Origin: Candidatus Latescibacterota bacterium
GTDB lineage: Bacteria > Latescibacterota > UBA2968 > UBA8231
DNA length: 64,000 bases
Direction: 5' to 3'
NCBI GenBank assembly: GCA_965242865.1
Contig: CBDETK010000013.1
Coordinates: 1,888,001 to 1,952,000, forward strand
Shown here: positions 26,855 through 54,474 of the stretch, piece after piece
Position numbering within the stretch: position 1 is the stretch's first letter
How the letters are laid out: the number at the start of each line of letters is the position of its first letter
Program-made: the position numbers and the translations under genes
Notes under the pieces: generated by a model
Databases searched by the model: none
Seen by the model: the letters and a program-made list of their open reading frames with translations, nothing else
Told to the model about the DNA's origin: nothing

Positions 26855-28135
26855 ATGGCCTTGACACTCCTGCATTTTGCCGACCTGCATCTGGGCGTCG
26901 AAAACCACGGCAGCCTCGACCCAAGCACCGGCCTACATTCGCGGGTTCAAGACTTTGCTACCAGCCTAGAAGAAGTCTTCGACCTAGCCATTGAAAAGTC
27001 AGTCGATTTGGTTCTCTTCGCCGGCGACATGTACAAAAATTGCGATCCGACCCCCACCCACCAGCGCGTCTTCGCCCACCAGCTCCAGCGTCTGCAAGCG
27101 GCCCGCATCCCCATCGTGCTGGTGGTGGGCAACCACGACGCACCGGGGGCTTTTGGCAAAGCCACTTCGGTTGACATTTTCAGCACCCTACAGCTAGAAA
27201 ACACGCATGTCATCCGCCGCCCAAAACCAAAACTCCTGCGGCTCGACACGGCCCACGGCCCAGTGCAAGTGGCCGGCCTGCCTTGGCCGACGCGCCATGC
27301 CCTGCTCACCCGCGATGAATACCGCGACTGGTCGCTGGAGCAAATCCGCGACGAGATCAAAAGGATCTATTCGGCCCGGATCGACGAATACGCCCGGCAG
27401 CTCGACCCAACATTGCCGGGCATCCTCGTCGCCCACCTCGCCGCTGCGGACGCCGTCTTGTCTGGAGGCGAACGCACCGCCATCATCGGCCAAGACCCCG
27501 CTCTGCTCAAAGGCACCCTTGCCAATCCAGCCTACGACTACGTCGCCTTGGGACACATTCACAAATACCAAGACCTCAACCCCGGCCACCATCCGCCCGT
27601 GGTCTATTCGGGCAGCTTAGAGCGCATTGACTTCGGCGAGGAAGGCGAAGACAAGGGCTTTTGCCTCGTCCGCATTGCAGAGGACGCGACCATGCCGAGG
27701 GGCCGAAAAACCACCGTTGAATTCGTGCCCGTCGCGGCTCGGCGTTTTGTGACCATCGAGCTCAAGGTGCTCAACGGACAAGACGCGACCGAGCGCATCG
27801 TCGCGGCCTGCGCCGAGGCCGATCTAACAGACGCCGTAGTCCGCGTCCTCTACCACCTGCCCGCCGGCTACGCCACCCCGATAGACTTACAACGGGTGCG
27901 GCAAGCACTCAAACCGGCCTTCCACGTCGCCTCCATCCAGCCGCGCTTTGCCCCAGAAAAGACCCAACGCCGTGCAGAAATCAGCCCGGAGGCCGAGCTA
28001 GGCGACGCCCTCGACCGCTACATCAACAACAACCCAGATCTGCGAGAACACCAACACCGGTCCGAGCTCAAAAACCACGCGCTCCGTCTAGAGCGTGCGC
28101 TCGAATCGGGCCAACGCAACGGAGCCGACGCATGA
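26855..28135 (+). CDS. sbcD: SbcD/Mre11-family nuclease subunit
   Basis: ADLHLG, AGD, GNHD, ALGHIH, YSGSLERIDFGE metallophosphoesterase motifs. Confidence 0.95.
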   Translation: MALTLLHFADLHLGVENHGSLDPSTGLHSRVQDFATSLEEVFDLAIEKSVDLVLFAGDMYKNCDPTPTHQRVFAHQLQRLQAARIPIVLVVGNHDAPGAFGKATSVDIFSTLQLENTHVIRRPKPKLLRLDTAHGPVQVAGLPWPTRHALLTRDEYRDWSLEQIRDEIKRIYSARIDEYARQLDPTLPGILVAHLAAADAVLSGGERTAIIGQDPALLKGTLANPAYDYVALGHIHKYQDLNPGHHPPVVYSGSLERIDFGEEGEDKGFCLVRIAEDATMPRGRKTTVEFVPVAARRFVTIELKVLNGQDATERIVAACAEADLTDAVVRVLYHLPAGYATPIDLQRVRQALKPAFHVASIQPRFAPEKTQRRAEISPEAELGDALDRYINNNPDLREHQHRSELKNHALRLERALESGQRNGADA

Positions 28136-31174: not shown

Positions 31175-32146
31175 ATGGCCCATTGCGACGAATACCGCGC
31201 CGCCCACGCCGGCGCCGCCCTGCACAACGCCCAAGCCTCGTTCCGCCTGTACATGCGCGGGGCCGACCATCTCGATTTCCTGCACCGCATGACCTCCAAC
31301 GACTTCCACACCCTGCAAATTGGGCACGGCCTCGAAGCGGTCTTTATCGAACACCGGGCGCGAATTCTCGACTTTGCCACCTGCTACCGCGGCCCGGACG
31401 CCACGGCCTTGATCCTGAGTCCCGATTCGCGCACGGCAATCCCCGCTTGGTTGGACCGCTTCATCTTTGCCGAGGCCCTCGAATGGGCAGACCGCACCGA
31501 CGAGACGGCCATGTTCGAGCTCATCGGCCCACGCGCCGCCCAGCTCGTCGCCCGCACCTTGGATACAGACCTGACTGCGTTTGAGGATCACCAATTGCTC
31601 GACCCCCAAGTCGCCGACGGCCTGTGGCTGGCGCGCACGGCCGGGCCGGGGCTGCGCGCCTTCGGGTCGCCCGCGGCCGTGGAGGCCCTTTGGCAACGCC
31701 TCGCCGCGGCCGGGGCGCGTCCAATCGGGGCCGCGACGTGGGAAATTTGGCGCGTCGAACAGGGCCTTCCCCGGCTCGGGCGCGAGCTGACCCAAAGTTA
31801 CAATCCCTGGGAAGCCGGGCTTGGGCGCGCTATTCATCTAGATAAGGGCTGCTATATCGGCCAAGAAGTCATCGCCCGCCTCGATACCTACGACAAAGTC
31901 AAGCAGCATCTCGTGGGGCTGCGGCTTTCCCTCGCCACCGCCGAGTTGCCAGCAATCGGGCAACCGCTGCGCGCCGGCGGGCGCGAAGTCGGGCGCATCA
32001 CTTCTGCGGCTCACTCCCCCCGCTTCGGCCCGATTGCCCTCGCTTATGTGCGGCGACGTGCGTGCGCCGAGGGCACTGCGCTCGACGCAGGGGGAGCACA
32101 AGCCACCGTAGTCTCCCTGCCTTTTTTCTCAAATGAATCCCGCTAA
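31175..32146 (+). CDS. ygfZ: YgfZ/GcvT-family folate-binding protein
   Basis: KGCYIGQE signature; GcvT-like N- and C-terminal regions. Confidence 0.88.
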   Translation: MAHCDEYRAAHAGAALHNAQASFRLYMRGADHLDFLHRMTSNDFHTLQIGHGLEAVFIEHRARILDFATCYRGPDATALILSPDSRTAIPAWLDRFIFAEALEWADRTDETAMFELIGPRAAQLVARTLDTDLTAFEDHQLLDPQVADGLWLARTAGPGLRAFGSPAAVEALWQRLAAAGARPIGAATWEIWRVEQGLPRLGRELTQSYNPWEAGLGRAIHLDKGCYIGQEVIARLDTYDKVKQHLVGLRLSLATAELPAIGQPLRAGGREVGRITSAAHSPRFGPIALAYVRRRACAEGTALDAGGAQATVVSLPFFSNESR

Positions 32147-33044
32147 GGCCGGCGGACGCTCCAAGATAGTCCACCTTGGGATCGACCGCGGCCCGCGCCA
32201 CAACACCCGAGTGTGCGCCGAATTCGCCGCGCTCCTGCGCGAATACACCGACTGGATCGAGTGGGGCGACGGCTATGCCATTCTCGACGTCACCGACAAC
32301 AAGCTCGACATCCCCTTTGGCATGCGCGTCGCCAAGATGATCAAGAGCGACATCAAGCGGCAGCTCGGCTGGGGCGTCTCCGTGGGGTTGGCCCCCAGCA
32401 AGTTCTTGGCGCGGCTGGCCATGGAACGCCAGCGGCCCGATGGCCTAACGGTCGTGCGGCCCGAACAAATCGGAGATTTTCTCGCCGATGTGCCCATCGA
32501 CCAGCTCCCCGGCGTGGGCGCGATTACGCGCCAGCAGCTCGCGGCCATGCACATAGAGCGCGTGGGCTCGCTGGCCCGCGCCTCCCTGAACGAACTCGTG
32601 CGTCGCTTTGGCCAGCGCGGCCGCAGCTTTTGGCATCTCGCCCACGGCCAAGACGACGACCCGGTCGCCGCGGCCGAACCGCTCGGCCAAATCTGCGAGG
32701 AAGCCTCCTTTGCCGCCCCGCTATACTCTCGCGAAGAAATGCACAATGCCTTGCGAGAGCTAGCCGCCGCGCTCTGCGGACGCTTGCAGCGCCGGGGGCT
32801 GCAAGTGCGCGCCGTGAACCTAGCGGTGCGCTACCCAGATTTTCGCACCGCCACGCGCACCGCACGGTTGGCCTCCTTTACCGACCGCGCCCCGGTCGTC
32901 TTGGCCGTGGCCGAGGCGTTGCTAGACCGCACTGAGGCCCGCGACTTGGGGGTGCGCTTGTTGGGCCTTGAATTGGGAGGATTTGCCGACGAGGCGCTCG
33001 AACAGCTCGATCTGTTCGCCAGCGAAACGTCGGTTGGGAATTAG
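32133..33044 (+). CDS. DinB/Pol IV-like Y-family protein lacking the fingers domain and catalytic residues, with C-terminal QLDLF clamp motif
   Basis: SVGLAPSKFLARLA, LPGVG HhH, little-finger VRLLGL; motif I reads IVHLGID and motif III reads WGDGYAILDVT. Confidence 0.85.
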   Translation: MNPAKAGGRSKIVHLGIDRGPRHNTRVCAEFAALLREYTDWIEWGDGYAILDVTDNKLDIPFGMRVAKMIKSDIKRQLGWGVSVGLAPSKFLARLAMERQRPDGLTVVRPEQIGDFLADVPIDQLPGVGAITRQQLAAMHIERVGSLARASLNELVRRFGQRGRSFWHLAHGQDDDPVAAAEPLGQICEEASFAAPLYSREEMHNALRELAAALCGRLQRRGLQVRAVNLAVRYPDFRTATRTARLASFTDRAPVVLAVAEALLDRTEARDLGVRLLGLELGGFADEALEQLDLFASETSVGN

Positions 33045-33314
33045 CATGGGACGCCCGGGCCATGCCTAGCGAAACTCGAGAACCTAGCTTCTAAGAAGCG
33101 GTCTGCTCCGCAAACCCTGCTTTGGGCTACATGAATGGCCGTCCAGTGGTCTTAACAGCACCCGTTTTTCATAGGGCGAGATGTCCTTGAGGGTTGCGGC
33201 GTTTCGTCCCTTGCGTCCAACCGATCATTGCCGTAGCAGTAAGCAGGTTGCGGCTTCTGTGTTTAGGCTCTTAATTACGGCCCGACGGCAAATGACCTAA
33301 ATCAGGGGCGGCCC

Positions 33315-33384
33315 CGTTGGGGCAGGCCCCCGTGCCTGCCCGTAAGAATTATAGGCGTTGGGGCAGGCCCCCGTGCCTGCCCGT
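33315..33384 (+). repeat. Tandem pair of REP-like palindromes
   Basis: CGTTGGGGCAGGCCCCCGTGCCTGCCCGT identical at 33315-33343 and 33356-33384. Confidence 0.85.
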
Positions 33385-33518
33385 TACAGCGGCAAATTTG
33401 GCACGATCGGTTGGCAAATGAACGAGACGATGGTTAAGCATTTCACATCAGGCAGGGGCCTTGCTGTGGGGCAAAACCCTGTTGAGTGCTTGGAATCGTC
33501 GTCGATTTTAATGCGTCG

Positions 33519-33566
33519 TAAGTCCTTGAAAAACAACGACTTATCCCCCCATCCCCCGAAAATTCT
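33519..33566 (+). promoter_or_regulatory. Palindrome + poly-C element, copy 1
   Basis: TAAGTCCTTG-AAAAA-CAACGACTTA then TCCCCCCATCCCCCGAAAATTCT. Confidence 0.6.
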
Positions 33567-33907
33567 CCGCTAGCTCCAAGCACTAAACTCTCTACTTTTC
33601 TGCATAGGCCGACGGATCGTGTGCGGCTGTTGGGCGTCGCGGCGGTCTGGCAGCACGACCCCAAGCGCACGCTACTGTGCGGCCTTTGTGCTGATCCCCG
33701 TTTACTGCACCACCTCCGCAACCCGTCTGCCAAAGACCGAGGGCGGAATCCCCTCGATCTAGACGCCGCGCTACCAGCAAAGGCGCACCCACAGCAAGGG
33801 GCGCGTCCTGAGCACTCCAAGTATAGCCCTAGGGCTAGCTCTGCCTCTTTGGGTGCGTCATGCCTCTCTTCCAGTTTCCACACCATATCCATACAAAGGA
33901 GCAAAAA

Positions 33908-35407
33908 ATGCTTTCGTTGAAATCTCTCAAAACCCTGCTTGCGTTCGTCCTTTTGGGCATCGTCGCTGCTTGGACGGGCTGCTCAGACTCCGCGCCGGTC
34001 GCTTCTCGTCCGGCCGGCAAAGCCACCTGTTCCTTGTGCGAGTTCTTGGGCGACGACACCTACACCGCTACCGACGGGCTGCCCGCCCCCGAAAGCCCTG
34101 ACACCACCCAAACCGACGCCGACGCCGATAGAACACAGGCCGACGCTGACGCTGACAGCACCCAATCGGCTATCGTTGAGTTCGCCGACGCCAATCTGGA
34201 GCGGTGCGTGCGGGAGGCGTTGGACCGCCCGCAAGGGACCCTGACCCCGGCGGGCTTGGCCGCCCTGACCGAACTCGACGCGAGCTACAAAAACATTGAG
34301 AGCGTGGCCGGCCTCGAACACGCGACAGCACTACACACGCTATATCTGCGGGACAACGCGATTACGGACGTGAGTCCGTTGGCCAGTCTGACCAACCTGC
34401 ACACGCTGTCGTTGTGGGGGAATGAGATTACAGACGTCAGTCCGCTGGCGGGCCTTATCAATCTTCAGAAGCTGTCGCTGTGGGGCAACGAAATTACGGA
34501 CGTGCAGCCGTTAGCCGGCCTAACGAACCTGCAATGGCTCCAGCTAGGAGACAATGAGATTGCGGATATCAGTCCGTTGGCGAGCCTGACGAACTTGCAA
34601 TGGCTGGGCGTGATGGAAAACGCCCTCAGCCCGCACGTTGCCAACCAACAGCTCGCCGCCGCGATAGCAAGCGGCCTCCGCGTCCAATCGCATCTAGAAA
34701 AATACCCCCGCGTCGAAACCGTCCAAACGGAACCAGAACCGGAGGAACCGACGGAATCCTTTTTATACTGGACGGACTGGGGCCGGGGTAAGATTCAGCG
34801 TACCAACCTAGATGGCTTAGGCGTCACAGACCTCGTCACGGGATTGGATTCTCCATCGGGCATCGCGCTGGATGTGGTGAGCGGAAGGATGTACTGGGCG
34901 GATGAAGGCGCGGGTAAAATTCAGCGTGCCAACCTAGATGGCTCAGGCGTCACAGACCTCGTCACGGGATTGATAACACCATCGGGCATCGCGCTGGATT
35001 TTAGTGCGCGAAAGATGTACTGGACGGAGATTGACGAGGGCACTTTTGGCACCGGTAAGATTCAGCGTGCCAACCTACATGGCTCAGGCGTCAGATCCCT
35101 CGTCACGGGATTGGATGGTGCATCGGGCATCGCGCTGGATTTGGAGAGCGGAAGGATGTACTGGACGGAGAGGGGGGTGACGGATAGGATTCGGCGTGCC
35201 AACCTACATGGCTCACCGGTCGAAGGCCTCGTCACGGCAGTGAGTAATCCATCACGCCTCGCGCTGGATTTGGAGAATAGAAAAATGTACTGGGCGGACT
35301 ATGGTTCGCAAAAGATTCAGCGTGCCAACTTGGATGCCCCATTCGCTGTCGAAGACCTCGTCACGGGATTGGGGGTTCCATCAAGCATCGCGCTGGATAT
35401 TCGGTAG
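33908..35407 (+). CDS. Lipoprotein with internalin-type LRRs and LDL-receptor class B (YWTD) repeats
   Basis: AAGGAG RBS and ATG at 33908; lipobox-like WTGC; 22-aa LRRs (LxxLxLxxNxIxDVSPLAxLxN); five YWT/AD/E repeats. Confidence 0.9.
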   Translation: MLSLKSLKTLLAFVLLGIVAAWTGCSDSAPVASRPAGKATCSLCEFLGDDTYTATDGLPAPESPDTTQTDADADRTQADADADSTQSAIVEFADANLERCVREALDRPQGTLTPAGLAALTELDASYKNIESVAGLEHATALHTLYLRDNAITDVSPLASLTNLHTLSLWGNEITDVSPLAGLINLQKLSLWGNEITDVQPLAGLTNLQWLQLGDNEIADISPLASLTNLQWLGVMENALSPHVANQQLAAAIASGLRVQSHLEKYPRVETVQTEPEPEEPTESFLYWTDWGRGKIQRTNLDGLGVTDLVTGLDSPSGIALDVVSGRMYWADEGAGKIQRANLDGSGVTDLVTGLITPSGIALDFSARKMYWTEIDEGTFGTGKIQRANLHGSGVRSLVTGLDGASGIALDLESGRMYWTERGVTDRIRRANLHGSPVEGLVTAVSNPSRLALDLENRKMYWADYGSQKIQRANLDAPFAVEDLVTGLGVPSSIALDIR

Positions 35408-35539
35408 GCATGGAGGTTCACCTGCCCGGCTTGAATGGCGTTGAGGCGACGCGGCAGAACGGGCTAAGGAGCCGAGCACCGGCTCTACGGCTTGTTCAAC
35501 ACGCCCCAAGGTAGAATTTGCGGAGCAGACCGCTTCTAA

Positions 35540-35701
35540 GAAGCGGTCTCAAAATTAGGGTTTCCGTCTCTGCTTCGGCTTGGTCCTTTGCTGGATTCCC
35601 GCCCCGTGTCGGAGCACGGGGTGACGTTCTTTCGCGGGAAGGACAGCGACCCGCTCTACGGCGTGTTCAACACCGTCCAAGATGGGTTTTCAGACCGCTT
35701 C
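35540..35701. mobile_element. 162-bp MITE with the same TIR family and TAA duplication
   Basis: GAAGCGGTCTCAAAA ... TTTTCAGACCGCTTC (14/15 IR); TAA at 35537-39 and 35702-04; internal nested palindromes. Confidence 0.8.
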
Positions 35702-36675
35702 TAAGGCTTGGCGAACCCACTCACAAAATTCCAGATCACCTCGTGGGTAGATACGCCGCTGATGGCGTCCGGCCATTCGTGCCCTGCTCCAGTTAGCCGA
35801 TAGTGCTCCACGCGGACTCCCCCGTCGCAGGCGTCGTGGACGATGTGAAGTGCCGATCCCGACTGCGTTTCGCTCTCATTCTGGCAGTTGTATTGCTCGC
35901 TCCAGAATTGGACGAGACCGGGAATGTCTCGCATCGTTCCGACCGAATCCCAGGCCTTCCAGTCCCATTGGCTGTCGTACGCGATGATCGGGTCGTCGCG
36001 ACCGTGAATGTGCAGGATGGGTACGTTTTCTACGAGCGCACAGGAATGGGGCGTCACCGGCATCGTGCCGGCGAGAGAGGCGATGGCCGCGAACCGAGCG
36101 TTCAAATGACAGGCCAACTCGTAGGTGAACATCGAACCGAGGGAGTAGCCTGTTGCGTAGATGCGGTTTGAATCCACGCAGTAGCGCGCGGCGAGGTCGT
36201 CGATCAACGCCTCGACGAAGGCGATGTCTTGGGTGGAACCTTCGCGGGTGTTGAGTTGCCACTCCCCCTCGTTGGGCGGCACGAGTTCGGCCAATGGATA
36301 GACCGCGATCACCTTCTCTGCCTCGACCAACTGTTCAAATTCCCGCTGCTGTGGAAACGGGTCGTCGCGGCCCCCGCCACCGTGAAAGGCCATGAGCACT
36401 GGCAGCGTCACCCCGGCGTCGGCCCGAGGGACCGATAGCCGATATTGCCTCCGAACCCCGTCCACCGTGATTTCCCTAAGCGTCTGGCTCTCAGCCGCGG
36501 CTGGCGTGGCGCAAGCATTCAGAGGGTCGCCGCTACCGCCGCCTTCGCTCCCGGTGACACTGCTATCGCCGCTCTCGCCGCAAGCGGCCAAGACAACCAC
36601 GAGTCCACACTGCACGCCGGTCCGTAGCGCAGAGTGATCATATACACGCGCAAATCGCTTCCATAGACGCTGCAT
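35701..36675 (-). CDS. Alpha/beta-hydrolase lipoprotein (PHB-depolymerase/LpqC-like esterase)
   Basis: LAAC lipobox, FHGGGG, GYSLG nucleophile, HGRDDP, GHEW; start re-set to MQRLW behind AGGAG. Confidence 0.82.
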   Translation of the reverse strand: MQRLWKRFARVYDHSALRTGVQCGLVVVLAACGESGDSSVTGSEGGGSGDPLNACATPAAAESQTLREITVDGVRRQYRLSVPRADAGVTLPVLMAFHGGGGRDDPFPQQREFEQLVEAEKVIAVYPLAELVPPNEGEWQLNTREGSTQDIAFVEALIDDLAARYCVDSNRIYATGYSLGSMFTYELACHLNARFAAIASLAGTMPVTPHSCALVENVPILHIHGRDDPIIAYDSQWDWKAWDSVGTMRDIPGLVQFWSEQYNCQNESETQSGSALHIVHDACDGGVRVEHYRLTGAGHEWPDAISGVSTHEVIWNFVSGFAKP

Positions 36676-36697
36676 CACGTTCTCCTGTAAAAAGAAA

Positions 36698-36803
36698 TTT
36701 TTCTGCGGTTCCCGCTGAATCCGGGATCGAGGGCGTCCCGCCCTCGACGAGGGCAAGATGCCCTCGATCCTCGGCAGGCTGACCGCGGGTGTCGTGTACT
36801 AAG
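36698..36803. repeat. Partial copy of a second MITE/REP family
   Basis: TCCGGGATCGAGGGCGTCCCGCCCTCGACGAGGGCAAGAT identical to about 46054-46093; ends in GGTGTCGTGTAC-TAA. Confidence 0.75.
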
Positions 36804-36812
36804 CTCGGCCTC

Positions 36813-38075
36813 TTAGGCCACAGCCTGCGGCAACACCGAATCTCCATAAGGCATCGCCCAGATCCGGGCCTCCGGGCCAACGACCTCGTGCGCGGCTGCC
36901 ACGGCTTGGTCCAGGTCGCCAAAGGGCACTACGCCCACGCGGCCCATAGCTTCCGCCAGCAGCGACGAGACCAAGTGGACGCGGGCCTTTTTCAGCACCC
37001 CGGCAATGGCGGCGGCCTTGTGCCCGCCCAAGACGAATTCTCGCTCTATGCGCGCGAGCACCGAGTCGGCCGAATCCGCCTCCTGCAACCAAGCGGCAAA
37101 AGTAGCGCCCCCCAGCCCTTCGCGGCATTCGGCCACCCAGACGATGACACCGCCTTCGCGCACGGCATGCACGGCGTTGTCGAGGGCCTTTTGCGCCTGA
37201 TACATATTGACGTCGAGCGGGTAGCCGCCCGCGCTGACCAGCACCATATCGGCGCGGCGCGCAATGGGCACGGCCCCGCGCTCGGCCACCCACTCGCACC
37301 CCTGGCGATGCGCGTCGCGCATGTGCCCGGCAACGGCCGCGACGATGCGGTGGCGATCATCGACGATCGCATTGAGGATGAAGTCAACCCCCAGCATGGC
37401 CGCGCCTTCTTCCAAATCTTCGCGCACGGGATTGCCCGCCAAGCACCCGGTCGTCGCCCCGGGGCGGGTCATTAGACCGTGGTTGGCCGTTATCGTCTTG
37501 GAGGAGGCACAGCCGGGCAAAATCGCCTTGGCCCCGCCGGAAAAGCCGGCGAAGTAGTGGAACTCCAAGTTGCCCAAGCAGAGCCGCACATCGGCCTCCA
37601 CCAGGGGACGGAAGAGTTCCACGGGCGTCCCGCGGGCGGTGACGCCCAGCCGCACCACATCTTGTAAATCGTGGTTGACGACCCGCACCCGCTCATAAAC
37701 GGCCGGCCCCACCAAGGCCGCCAACTCGGCCTCGGTCTGCGCTCGATGCAGCCCCAACGCCACGATCACGGTCACAGCGGCATCCGCTACGCTGGCCGCG
37801 GCCAGTTCCTCCAGCACCGGCGGCAACAGGCGGTCCGTCGGGCAGGGCCGCGTCATATCGCTGACCACGATCGCGACCTGCTGACCGGGCCGCACCAGCG
37901 CACGCAATGCTGGCGTCCCCAACGGACGGGCCAAGGCTTGGCGCACCACATCTTGTTCGGCGCGGTTGCCGTTGGTCGCGGCTTGGGGCCGCACGACGCC
38001 GAGCAGGTGCTCGGTGGACACGGCGATCGGCAGGTATCCGTCGCCATAAGGGAGCTTGAGTTCAGTCGCGGTCAT
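36813..38075 (-). CDS. larA: LarA-family nickel-pincer-dependent racemase/epimerase
   Basis: VVSDMTRP, ALGLHR, HYFAGFSGGAKAILPG, SAGGYPLD, YQAQKAL, GGHKA; substrate not determinable. Confidence 0.85.
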   Translation of the reverse strand: MTATELKLPYGDGYLPIAVSTEHLLGVVRPQAATNGNRAEQDVVRQALARPLGTPALRALVRPGQQVAIVVSDMTRPCPTDRLLPPVLEELAAASVADAAVTVIVALGLHRAQTEAELAALVGPAVYERVRVVNHDLQDVVRLGVTARGTPVELFRPLVEADVRLCLGNLEFHYFAGFSGGAKAILPGCASSKTITANHGLMTRPGATTGCLAGNPVREDLEEGAAMLGVDFILNAIVDDRHRIVAAVAGHMRDAHRQGCEWVAERGAVPIARRADMVLVSAGGYPLDVNMYQAQKALDNAVHAVREGGVIVWVAECREGLGGATFAAWLQEADSADSVLARIEREFVLGGHKAAAIAGVLKKARVHLVSSLLAEAMGRVGVVPFGDLDQAVAAAHEVVGPEARIWAMPYGDSVLPQAVA

Positions 38076-52165: not shown

Positions 52166-52180
52166 TAAGAAGCGGTCTGC
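52166..52180 (+). repeat. Solitary left TIR of the GAAGCGGTCT family
   Basis: TAA-GAAGCGGTCTGC identical to 33092-33106. Confidence 0.65.
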
Positions 52181-52530
52181 GCGTTTGAGTTGGCGTACTC
52201 ATAGAAGTTTCACGACAAACTCTATGGGTACGCCGAGCGGTCAATATGCCACCGATGTAACCGCTGCGCAATGGTTTCTGAAGTAAGCAGGTTGCGGCTC
52301 CTGTGTTTAGGCTCTTAATTATGGCCCGACGGCAAATAACCTTCATCAGAGCCGTACCACCACGTAGCGTCTGGTTGTTTCGTGGTAGCCTTGTAAACCG
52401 CATTTTGGCGGCCCATTTGGGGTTGGCGAATGAACGAGACCATGGGTGAGCATTTCACATCAGACCGGGGCCTTGCTGCGAGGGCCGGGCCTCGTTGGGT
52501 GCTTGGAATCAATGCCGATTTAATGTGTCG

Positions 52531-52572
52531 TAAGTCATTGAAAAACAACGGCTTACCCCCCCCGAAAATTCT
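52531..52572 (+). promoter_or_regulatory. Palindrome + poly-C element, copy 2
   Basis: TAAGTCATTG-AAAAA-CAACGGCTTA-C8-GAAAATTCT. Confidence 0.6.
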
Positions 52573-52826
52573 TCTCTAGCACTAGCACTCCACACTCCAC
52601 TTCTCAGCATCGGCCGACGGCTCGTGTGCGGTCGTTGGGCGTCGCGTCGGTCTGGCCGCGTGGCCCCAAACCGCCCGCGGCTGGCCGGCCTTCGTCTGTA
52701 CGCCGTGTCCTTAGGTTGGGTCCTGTCTAAGTATCGCCCTAGGATGCGCCCCGCCTCTTTGGGGCGTCATGTCCCTTCTTCCAACCTGCATACCATTTCT
52801 TCCCCAACCATACAAAGGAGCAAAAA

Positions 52827-54474
52827 ATGTCTTTGTTGAAATCGATAAAAACCCTGTTTGCATTCGTCCTTTTGGGCATCGTCGGTGCTTGGATGGGCTG
52901 CTCGGACTCTGCGCCGGTCGCCTCTCGTCCTGCCGGCAAAGCCACCTGTTCCTTATGCGAATTCTTGGGCGACGACACCTACACCGCTACCGACGGACTG
53001 GCCGCCCCTGAAAGCCCCGACACCACCCAGACCGACGCCGAAGCTGACAGTACACAGGCCGAGACCGAAGCTGACGCTGACAGCACCCAATCGGCCACCG
53101 TGGAGTTCGCCGACGCCAATTTGGAGCAGGCGGTGCGGGAGGCGTTGGATCGCCCGTCAGGGCCCCTGACCCCGGCAGACTTGGCGGCCCTGACCGAACT
53201 CGACGCGAGCCATAAAAACATTGAGAGCGTGGCCGGCCTCGAACACGCGACAGCCCTGCACACGCTATATCTGCGGGACAACGAGATTACCGACGTGAGT
53301 CCCTTGGCGAGCTTGACCAACCTGCAATCGCTGTCGCTGTGGGGGAACGCGATTACCGACGTGAGTCCGCTGGCGAGCCTGAGCAACCTTCAGAAGCTGT
53401 CGCTGTGGGGCAACGAAATTACGGACGTGCAGCCGTTAGCCGGCCTAACGAACCTGCAATGGCTCCAGCTAGGAGACAACGAGATTGCGGATATAAGTCC
53501 GTTGGCGAGCCTGACTAACTTGCAATGGCTGGGCGTGATGGAAAACGCCCTCAGCCAGCACGCGGCCAACCAACAACTCGCCGCCGCGATAACAAGCGGC
53601 CTCCGCGTCGAAGCGGTGATAGAAAAATACCCCCGCGTCGAAACCGTCCAACCGGAATCGACGGAACCACCCGTCGTACCAGTGCCCGCCCTATACTGGA
53701 CGGACAGTGGTACACCTAATATTCAGCGGGCCAACCTCGATGGCTCAAACCGCGAAGTCCTCTCCCACTCCATCCCGAGATTGACGACGCCATCGGGCAT
53801 CGCGCTGGATTTGGTGCGTGGAAAGATGTACTGGACAGACTGGAGCAGAAGAAAAATTCAGCGGGCCAATCTCGACGGTTCACAGGTCGAAGACCTCATC
53901 ACTATCACCGAGGGATTGGCTTCTCCATCGGGCATCGCGCTGGATTTGGTGAGCGGAAAGATATACTGGACAGACACTGGCACGAATAAAATTCAGCGGG
54001 CCAACTTGGATGGCAGACAGGTACGAGACCTCGTCACGGAATTGGCTTCTCCACAGGGCATCGCGCTGGATTTGGCGCGCGGAAAGATGTACTGGACAGA
54101 AATTGGCACTGGCGCGGCTAAAATTCAGCGGGCCAACCTGAATGGCAGACAGGTCGAAACCCTCCCCATCACGGGATTGAATACTCCACAGGACATCGCG
54201 CTGGACTTGGTGAATGGAAAGATGTACTGGACAGACGGGGGGACAGAGGAGATTCTGCGGGCCAACCTAAATGGCTTAGAGGTCGAAACCCTCCCCACTC
54301 CCGGGATTAGACGATCCATCGGGCATCGCGCTGGATTTGGTGAACGGAAAGATGTACTGGGTGGACGCTGTCGAGAGAAAGATTCAGCGGGCCAACTTGG
54401 ATGGCAGACAGGTCGAAACCCTCCCCATCACGGGATTGAATATTCCATGGAGCATCGCGCTGGGTACTCGGTAG
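52827..54474 (+). pseudogene. Paralogous LRR-YWTD lipoprotein with a +1 frameshift near 54300
   Basis: N-half near-identical to the 33908 gene; removing one base in ACTCCCGGGA restores GLDDPSGIALDLVNGKMYWVD...IALGTR-stop at 54474. Confidence 0.8.

Follow-up and report, generated by a model that had tools for sequence, protein, structure and literature searches.

How does a gene for a surface protein come to lie between the ends of a transposable element that carries no transposase? The question is raised by a block at positions 33095-35536 of a 64,000-nucleotide stretch of DNA (contig CBDETK010000013.1 of assembly GCA_965242865.1, positions 1,888,001 to 1,952,000; henceforth the window) from a Candidatus Latescibacterota bacterium. 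The block holds a long leader and a single gene for a probable lipoprotein with leucine-rich repeats (LRR) and YWTD repeats. An interpretation made from the letters of the window alone (henceforth the sequence-only reading) had proposed that ends of the kind found on miniature inverted-repeat transposable elements (MITEs) captured this gene and spread it through the genome. A partner insertion sequence (IS), cassette-free sites in related species and paired ends around other copies support this proposal. The block is thus best read as a mobile insertion cassette (MIC), a non-autonomous derivative of an IS5-family element in which the transposase gene has been replaced by the leader and the LRR-YWTD lipoprotein gene, an interpretation to which we assign a probability of about 0.72.

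The block measures 2442 bp and has TAA directly outside each end. Its termini form a perfect 20-bp inverted repeat, GAAGCGGTCTGCTCCGCAAA at 33095-33114 and its exact reverse complement at 35517-35536, and 28 of 32 positions match when the arms are extended to 32 nt; these boundaries, part of the sequence-only reading, were recovered both by reading the sequence and with a repeat finder. As that reading also held, the same tip recurs on the adjoining 162-bp MITE (35540-35701, then TAA), giving the layout TAA-cassette-TAA-MITE-TAA, and precedes a paralogue at 52.2 kb, where an IS-derived end begins at 52169. The interior contains only the leader and one LRR-YWTD gene: Pfam matches identify 33908-35407 as the sole supported gene, the open reading frames (ORFs) of the leader are unconserved, and tblastn with both ORFs of the partner IS found no transposase in the block. 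The features, in order along the window, are as follows.

33092 to 33094, no strand: TAA, left copy of the 3-bp target duplication (from the sequence, and from a single TAA in congener G036 and TAA-MITE-TAA in congener G041 at this site).
33095 to 33126, plus strand: left terminal inverted repeat, the GCTCCGCAAA variant of the IS tip (20 nt perfect, 28/32 extended).
33095 to 33187, plus strand: arm on the left that stems from a separate small MITE (homology with the 131-bp MITE at G000:C13:1175093-1175223 over the left two-thirds of that element, G000 being the genome of the window).
33188 to 33235, plus strand: remnant of the cassette's own subterminal sequence of the left inverted repeat (IRL) type, tip deleted, ending in ATTGCCGTA.
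33227 to 33907, plus strand: non-coding leader common to the paralogues, with two 29-nt hairpin repeats.
33389 to 33689, plus strand: leader core conserved across the genus, with a 9-10 bp inverted repeat around a C-rich tract.
33908 to 35407, plus strand: passenger gene for a 499-aa probable lipoprotein (Pfam, NCBIfam, internal repeats).
35408 to 35477, plus strand: 3' region specific to the gene family, present in most paralogues, including those without the end.
35478 to 35536, plus strand: right arm homologous to the MITE right arm (direct repeat, 79% to 35649-35690).
35505 to 35536, plus strand: right terminal inverted repeat, pairing with the left arm.
35537 to 35539, no strand: TAA common to the cassette and the adjoining MITE, one of four such tandem junctions in the genome.
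35540 to 35701, plus strand: 162-bp MITE belonging to this IS family and sharing the 10-nt tips; TAA follows at 35702-35704.
52169 to 54474, plus strand: paralogue with an IS-derived left end and without a right end (same 10-nt tip at 52169).

The repeat finder also showed that GCTTC at 33087-33091, five bases left of the first TAA, mimics an element end.

Following two identical unpaired ends led to the partner element, a 931-bp IS at G000:C13:3345909-3346839 with a 100% identical intact copy at 2853142-2854072 (copies are henceforth named by their coordinates on G000:C13). Its tips, GAAGCTGTCTGAAAACT and GAAGCGGTCTGAAAACT, match at 16 of 17 positions; one copy is flanked by TAA/TAA and the other by TGA/TAA. 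The first 11 nt of the cassette end are the tip of this IS, and the IS provides the cognate transposase within the same ends, with a TAA duplication, that the sequence-only reading had anticipated. Two overlapping ORFs meet at a run of seven A (A7): Pfam assigns ORF A to DUF4096 (E 1.4e-26) and ORF B to DDE_Tnp_1 (E 2e-17), and together they span the NCBIfam model transpos_IS5_3 (positions 2-124 and 120-258 of 258), the halves scoring 117.1 and 96.7 bits singly with a whole-protein cut-off of 110 bits. IS5-family elements are about 0.8-1.5 kb long, with short terminal inverted repeats and a small target duplication, and the partner lies within these traits (931 bp, short tips, a 3-bp T(A/T)A duplication). 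Judged by its sequence, it is a bacterial IS5-family IS. The sequence-only reading had offered kinship with either the IS5 family or PIF/Harbinger elements; the first has held, while the second shrinks to a distant analogy limited to the TWA duplication (W, A or T). PIF/Harbinger elements are eukaryotic and combine a DDE_Tnp_4-type transposase with a Myb-like partner, and the transposase found here matches DDE_Tnp_1 and IS5-family models only. G000 also holds about five fragments of the IS and three copies of a 55-58% related IS. Of the 30 congeners with which we compared G000 (31 genomes of the genus in all; the congeners searched are species representatives), 14 contain full-length relatives of 75-84% identity, with several copies per genome that score equally.

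Ends of this type are numerous in G000. Searching for the tip with at most one mismatch beside T[A/T]A returned 81 ends, as against 0-10 for each of ten shuffled versions of the tip, so the ends are not a product of chance; the exact tip occurs at 66 sites. The base before the triplet is C at 58 of the 81 ends, which defines the target as C-TWA-G. When strict ends were paired with partners within 7 kb, 14 pairs emerged, of which ten are of MITE size, one is the IS and three are cassettes, measuring 2442, 2744 and 2965 bp. The 20-nt variant end of the cassette is private to it, with 14 occurrences in G000, all at cassette copies (eight right ends and six left sides), and none in the 30 congeners.

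The cassette belongs to a family. Matching the block against G000 by blastn gave 36 clusters; four of these (C13:1102439, 1954154, 2385217 and 3322711) match the LRR or N-terminal part only, at 64-81%, and were dropped, leaving 32 curated loci with leader, gene or both. Of these 32, 19 have the leader's first 65 nt, and 25 have an open frame of 470 aa or more that starts with a conserved signal peptide. About 24 copies have an intact gene 3' end, ten of which continue into an intact right end and T[A/T]A; in three or four others that end is degenerate, and the remaining copies diverge at differing points of the 3' region. Paired ends around further copies of the same cargo, another expectation of the sequence-only reading, were thus found, in three strict pairs (four with a copy flanked by CTA/TTA) among about 32 copies. 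Its suggestion that other cargo might lie between such ends fared less well: one cassette variant has an extra small ORF, and nothing else was seen. This ORF, of 92 codons, lies between the left end and the shortened leader of the 2965-bp cassette at 5563345-5566309 (G000:C13:5563509-5563784). Its product has heptad-like repeats and a hydrophobic tail, with a relative at C13:1612177-1612416, and gave no significant Pfam match and one sub-threshold match, to DUF1664.

To learn how the copies reached their sites, we compared ten cassette loci (the window and nine more) with five congeners. At seven of the ten, the two flanks adjoin each other in one or more congeners, in every case without the cassette, which bears out the idea that empty or cassette-free orthologous sites exist. 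At five of these seven informative loci (the window, 891246, 1849832, 2789465 and 2610766) the right end is followed directly by TAA or TTA.

At the window site, the dinB-like gene and larA of 14 congeners converge directly, their stop codons overlapping, and everything at window positions 33029-36811 (a 63-bp spacer, the cassette, the MITE, an esterase gene and another repeat) is missing. The esterase gene occurs in only three of 30 congeners, and in one of them, G007, at another locus; its presence here is therefore a lineage-specific arrival as well. In G036 the esterase gene adjoins a single TAA. G041 has flanks identical to the base, but between two TAA it carries an 88-bp MITE of the same subfamily as the window MITE, inverted. 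At 2789465, G036 again has an empty site, TAA followed by flank, where G000 has the right end, TAA and an identical flank, so that the junction is exact; on the left, G000 has lost the end together with its TAA and 8 bp of flank. At 891246, G041 has a 140-bp MITE at the same TAA. At 1849832, four congeners have 46-184 bp where G000 has 2.6 kb. The cassette is also absent from congeners at 837595, 2610766 and 27098, with less exact breakpoints; at 27098 the flanks are conserved and the imprecision stems from an unrelated insert of about 750 bp in G041. Two small ORFs of that insert (G041:C1, about 2861700-2862330) resemble, by eye, a HicB/HicA antitoxin-toxin pair. We rejected 5563345-5566309 as a third clean insertion since its flanks lie far apart in all five congeners, and the flanks of 1108733 and 4747760 show no synteny in these five genomes.

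Several of these observations, together with others from the family, weigh against transposition of a unit and could instead be explained if the gene spread by duplication, homologous recombination or gene conversion, its IS-like ends being passive or scars of MITE hot spots and the unit itself never having transposed. Three of the ten loci (5563345, 1108733 and 4747760) have no syntenic flanks and sit at synteny breaks. At several sites G041 has a different small MITE at the exact cassette spot; these spots are therefore hot spots, and recombinational replacement could also have produced the pattern. The copy at 1849832 is flanked by a 21-bp direct duplication and TTA, which a plain 3-bp staggered cut does not account for. 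Among the copies, 78-94% identical and mosaic, the best pair reaches 94.6% over 369 bp and 93.8% over 1.2 kb; with no near-identical copies and with mosaic identities there is no sign of recent movement, and the paralogues seem, from their sequences, to recombine. One or both ends are gone in most copies: only three of 32 have both ends with T[A/T]A flanks (the fourth has CTA/TTA), the right end is intact in only about ten of the 24 or so whose gene 3' end is intact, and at least eight kinds of left-end architecture occur. Identical flanking triplets in ten of the 14 pairs are only weakly above the half or so expected if all flanks were TAA or TTA. The cassette end, moreover, departs from the IS tip after base 11, by an extra CTCCG.

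Weighed against this list, an origin by duplication or recombination appears unlikely to us. All seven informative loci hold insertions the size of a single gene, in contexts that are unrelated to one another and otherwise conserved. Five of the seven end in the right end and TAA/TTA, and the empty site fixes the junction to the base at the window and at 2789465. The homology between the MITEs of G041 and the cassette ends of G000 extends over about 17-30 nt only and is in the wrong orientation at 891246, and the variant end is exclusive to cassettes. We therefore retain insertion of the cassette as a unit.

The duplicated 21-bp target at 1849832, CAACCCTCGTGGTTGYCCYTA, can form a hairpin; the duplication lies at G000:C13:1849790-1849831 and 1852365-1852400, and congeners have one copy.

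Could the arrangement in the window be an assembly artefact, the cassette having been mis-joined at this site in a repeat-rich, metagenome-derived genome? G000 is rated 93.6% complete with 6.8% contamination, and the contigs of public short-read runs (Logan) break at repeat borders. None of them spans the block or shows an empty allele, which counts against a stronger claim. A mis-join nevertheless seems very improbable. The window lies within a 5.6-Mb contig and its three-TAA arrangement is internally consistent; contigs of the public runs X3 and X4 cross from the unique left flank to the left end, reaching 33128, and those of X1, X3 and X4 run from within the MITE into the esterase gene. No joint skipping 33095-35536 is among the contig joints listed, which is neutral on empty-site alleles as the public contigs break at the borders. 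Deletion-like joints (e.g. 33116 to 33227, and 35710 to 33243) were discarded as site alleles, since they represent other paralogous loci mapped onto the window.

We next consider where the two ends came from. The MITE at 35540-35701 has the properties of its class (162 bp against an upper bound of about 300 bp, terminal inverted repeats, TAA/TAA flanks, no coding content, and multiple copies, with many partial and full relatives and ten MITE-sized pairs in G000) and is built from a left arm like the IS end beside the transposase start, a hairpin module of about 55 nt, and a right arm like the other IS end. MITE and cassette arms are homologous over about 45-60 nt, and both resemble the left and right inverted repeats of the IS (IRL and IRR) over about 16-22 nt. 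The hairpin module at 35590-35644, GC-rich with a CCCCGTGTCGGAGCACGGGG core, recurs at dozens of sites in the genome at 88-100% identity, mostly outside the MITEs of this IS family, and also scores as terminator-like.

A copy at C13:1175078 shows how the left end of the window copy could have arisen. There, a 131-bp MITE is followed by TTA, the cassette's own left tip and arm, and the leader, in what looks like the older state; this locus still has the tip GAAACGGTCT and the TTA that the remnant at 33188-33235 has lost. Both the window copy and the 891246 copy lack about 57 bp around the TTA, covering both facing tips, and in both the outer end of the MITE is fused to the cassette at an identical junction. 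Because this segment with its facing tips was deleted and the outer end fused, the left inverted repeat of the window copy was donated by a neighbouring MITE. The two fused copies (the window and C13:891246-893989) lie in unrelated flanks, each between TAA and TAA, and to judge from their sequences the fused unit went on to a second site. Left ends of other kinds occur as well: some copies have an inverted fragment of the right arm, one an IS end of the other polarity and one a 26-bp mini-element. In the paralogue at 52.2 kb the leader start is joined to the IS tip, a piece of the IS 5' region and about 17 initial codons of the transposase, which precede it. All of these alternative left ends join at or near the same leader start.

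This history bears directly on an objection raised by the sequence-only reading itself, that the two ends belong to two independent small MITEs. On that view they would have inserted by chance on either side of a resident gene, and the block would at most be a one-off composite, with no family of mobile cassettes. The objection is right in one respect, for the left 93 bp are the remnant of a separate MITE. MITEs of this IS family are also frequent and stack in tandem, and DNA between two miniature elements has been reported to be mobilised in Tn3-derived elements (PMC4133298). It fails in others. A second locus, where TAA flanks the unit on either side, has the fused left arm with the very same junction, and the right arm lies at a constant distance past the gene in eight copies with the 20-nt variant and in two more with a plainer right end. 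Nor is the gene resident, being absent from the site in 14 congeners and from between the same flanks in G041. A pair of independent MITEs therefore strikes us as distinctly unlikely, and the single-cassette interpretation is the one we pursue.

We propose the following course of events. The transposase would be made from the two overlapping ORFs of the IS, probably by slippage on the A7 run, and supplied in trans by intact IS copies elsewhere on the chromosome. It would recognise the common tip, GAAGCGGTCTG, at both cassette ends, the variant end included, and mobilisation of the cassette in trans in this way is likely. The unit would be inserted at C-T(A/T)A-G with duplication of the central three bases. 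As the element starts with G and ends with C, each insertion should recreate two good targets, which would favour head-to-tail stacking. The TAA-cassette-TAA-MITE-TAA arrangement of the window would have formed because insertions recreate their targets and elements stack, and the same property would explain both the tandem layout at four junctions in the genome and the turnover of left ends. At one copy a MITE would have landed beside the cassette's own left end, and a deletion of about 57 bp from the resulting palindrome would have fused the two, leaving a unit whose ends are almost the same. The approximately 32 dispersed and mostly intact copies of this species lineage may then have arisen through repeated rounds of transposition and the later erosion of their ends.

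A bolder version of this model, which we put forward only tentatively, is that of a self-renewing cassette system through which a single lipoprotein gene has become a diversifying multigene family borne on transposons. As every element end recreates the C-TWA-G target, IS elements and MITEs would go on inserting beside the cassette and supplying it with new left ends, the GCTCCGCAAA right end would travel with the gene, and the poly-C of the leader, variable in length between its conserved inverted repeats, could turn individual copies on and off. If this were true, some 25 intact LRR-YWTD surface proteins would give a sponge-associated bacterium a repertoire of the contingency type.

The 680-bp leader (33227-33907) is repeated along with the gene in the paralogues, with 18 full-length or nearly full-length copies in G000 and none in the 30 congeners, so that among the 31 genomes the full leader is confined to G000. 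Six congeners have one to three partial matches each (70-78%) to the leader core, and these lack flanking tips at the three G041 loci and one G007 locus scanned. Three longer ORFs in the leader show no conservation as coding sequence across paralogues. One forward frame is open in many copies, with a protein identity of 54-80% that is lower than the nucleotide identity, and the other two frames carry stops; a coding role was rejected on these grounds, and the leader is treated as non-coding. A structured RNA is likewise unsupported, with a covariation term of only -0.54 kcal/mol; Rfam returned no family for 32900-36900 beyond a chance-level snoRNA match (E 0.12), and a scan for promoters and terminators stayed at chance level. 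The segments 33315-33343 and 33356-33384 are exact copies of a 29-nt hairpin repeat with a GGGCAGGCCCCCGTGCCTGCCC core. The number of these repeats varies between paralogues, and the copy at C13:1177733 has repeats like them in place of its right end. Between TTGAAAAACAACGACTTA and GAAAATTCTCC lies a C-rich tract (33545-33557, interrupted in the window copy) whose length varies from about 8 to 20 C among copies. It is enclosed by a conserved inverted repeat of 9-10 bp (33481-33494 and 33575-33588) and recurs both among the G000 paralogues and, in six congeners, within their leader-like regions. The tract might act as a slipped-strand switch for each copy.

The passenger protein has about five LRR units (Pfam LRR_4, E 2.6e-38) and five YWTD, or LDL-receptor class B, repeats (Ldl_recept_b, E 9.5e-25), and internalin-like LRR models of NCBIfam match it too. 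Its signal peptide ends in ...WTGC, a lipobox read by eye that makes it a probable lipoprotein, and AGGAG at 33897-33901 lies 6 nt 5' of the ATG. Relatives elsewhere are distant, cover the YWTD half at 40-58% identity, and sit in metagenome-assembled genomes labelled Latescibacterota, Phycisphaerae, Planctomycetaceae and Calditrichaeota.

The neighbourhood yielded a few further observations. The dinB-like ORF at 32133-33044 (303 aa) matches the Pfam profile IMS from profile position 74 onward only, and the ORF upstream of it (31175-32146) encodes a GCV_T-type aminomethyltransferase and not the missing N-terminus; the polymerase may lack its N-terminal catalytic part. The last residues of the dinB-like protein differ from those of its congeners because of the insertion. 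A second, unrelated repeat family of about 106 bp, containing ...CCCTCGACGAGGGCAAGATGCCCTC..., is represented at 36699-36805. Scored copies number at least 14-15 in each of G000, G007 and G041, and the family occupies the G041 sites of the G000 cassettes 1849832 and 837595.

Bacteria of animal hosts, sponge symbionts among them, encode large sets of "eukaryote-like" repeat proteins, whose expansion is mostly ascribed to horizontal transfer and duplication. Here the unit of expansion is directly visible as a gene and leader between IS ends at about 30 sites in one species lineage, while sister species have the same IS without the cassette. Mobilisation in trans by a defined IS5-family transposase would give such an expansion a concrete mechanism, and the 20-nt variant end offers a marker for tracing these cassettes in metagenomes. 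Full-text searches, with subscription journals and supplements outside their scope, found no report tying eukaryote-like proteins of sponge symbionts to such cassettes. The IS-derived gene cassette is real and well supported, and its novelty is moderate: it stands apart from known MICs in IS family, cargo and type of host and has a private end variant, and the MIC principle is already known.

Among insertion sequences, the IS427 and IS1031-type groups of the IS5 family are known from ISfinder reviews for two overlapping ORFs and associated MITEs. The partner IS resembles them in its DUF4096 and DDE_Tnp_1 domains, the A7 run at the overlap and a TNA-type 3-bp duplication at C-TWA-G; the block differs from them in having no transposase of its own. 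As in the Tn3-derived inverted-repeat miniature elements (TIMEs) described in PMC4133298, a separate miniature element supplied one of the ends now in use. Unlike the arrangement reported there, the second end is an integral, family-specific arm, and the donated end was fused by deletion to yield a single cassette in place of a gene framed by two complete MITEs.

The cassette MIC231 is reportedly present in single or low copy, unlike the roughly 30-member expansion here. It is the founding MIC, from Bacillus cereus, and its mobilisation in trans by the transposase of the cognate IS231 (IS4 family) has been demonstrated, as reported in PMC4337579. Both cassettes hold a passenger gene between IS-type ends without a transposase; they differ in IS family and target duplication, and trans-mobilisation is likely, but no more than that, in the present case. 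More generally, MICs are described as passenger genes between IS-related inverted repeats, devoid of a transposase and activated by a cognate one (PMC4337579), and our block combines IS-related inverted repeats, no internal transposase, a cognate target duplication, a transposase elsewhere and insertion as a unit.

The nearest precedent is provided by the MICs with TnXax1 ends that carry and amplify genes for transcription activator-like effectors (TALEs) in Xanthomonas, for which solo ends, tandem units and variable left sides are reported (PMC4337579). As in that account, genes for repeat proteins of host interaction lie between inverted repeats of IS or transposon type without an internal transposase, target duplications flank some of the many copies, solo ends, tandem units and variable left sides recur, and the cognate transposase resides elsewhere in the genome. 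The two systems, as far as the same source describes the Xanthomonas one, differ in their transposition machinery (IS5 family with 3-bp T(A/T)A here, Tn3 family with 5 bp there), in their cargo (an LRR and YWTD lipoprotein as opposed to a type III effector) and in their host (apparently a sponge-associated bacterium as opposed to a plant pathogen), and a long conserved leader and a private end variant set the present cassette apart. The parallel between the two suggests that capture of host-interaction genes in cassettes is a general route.

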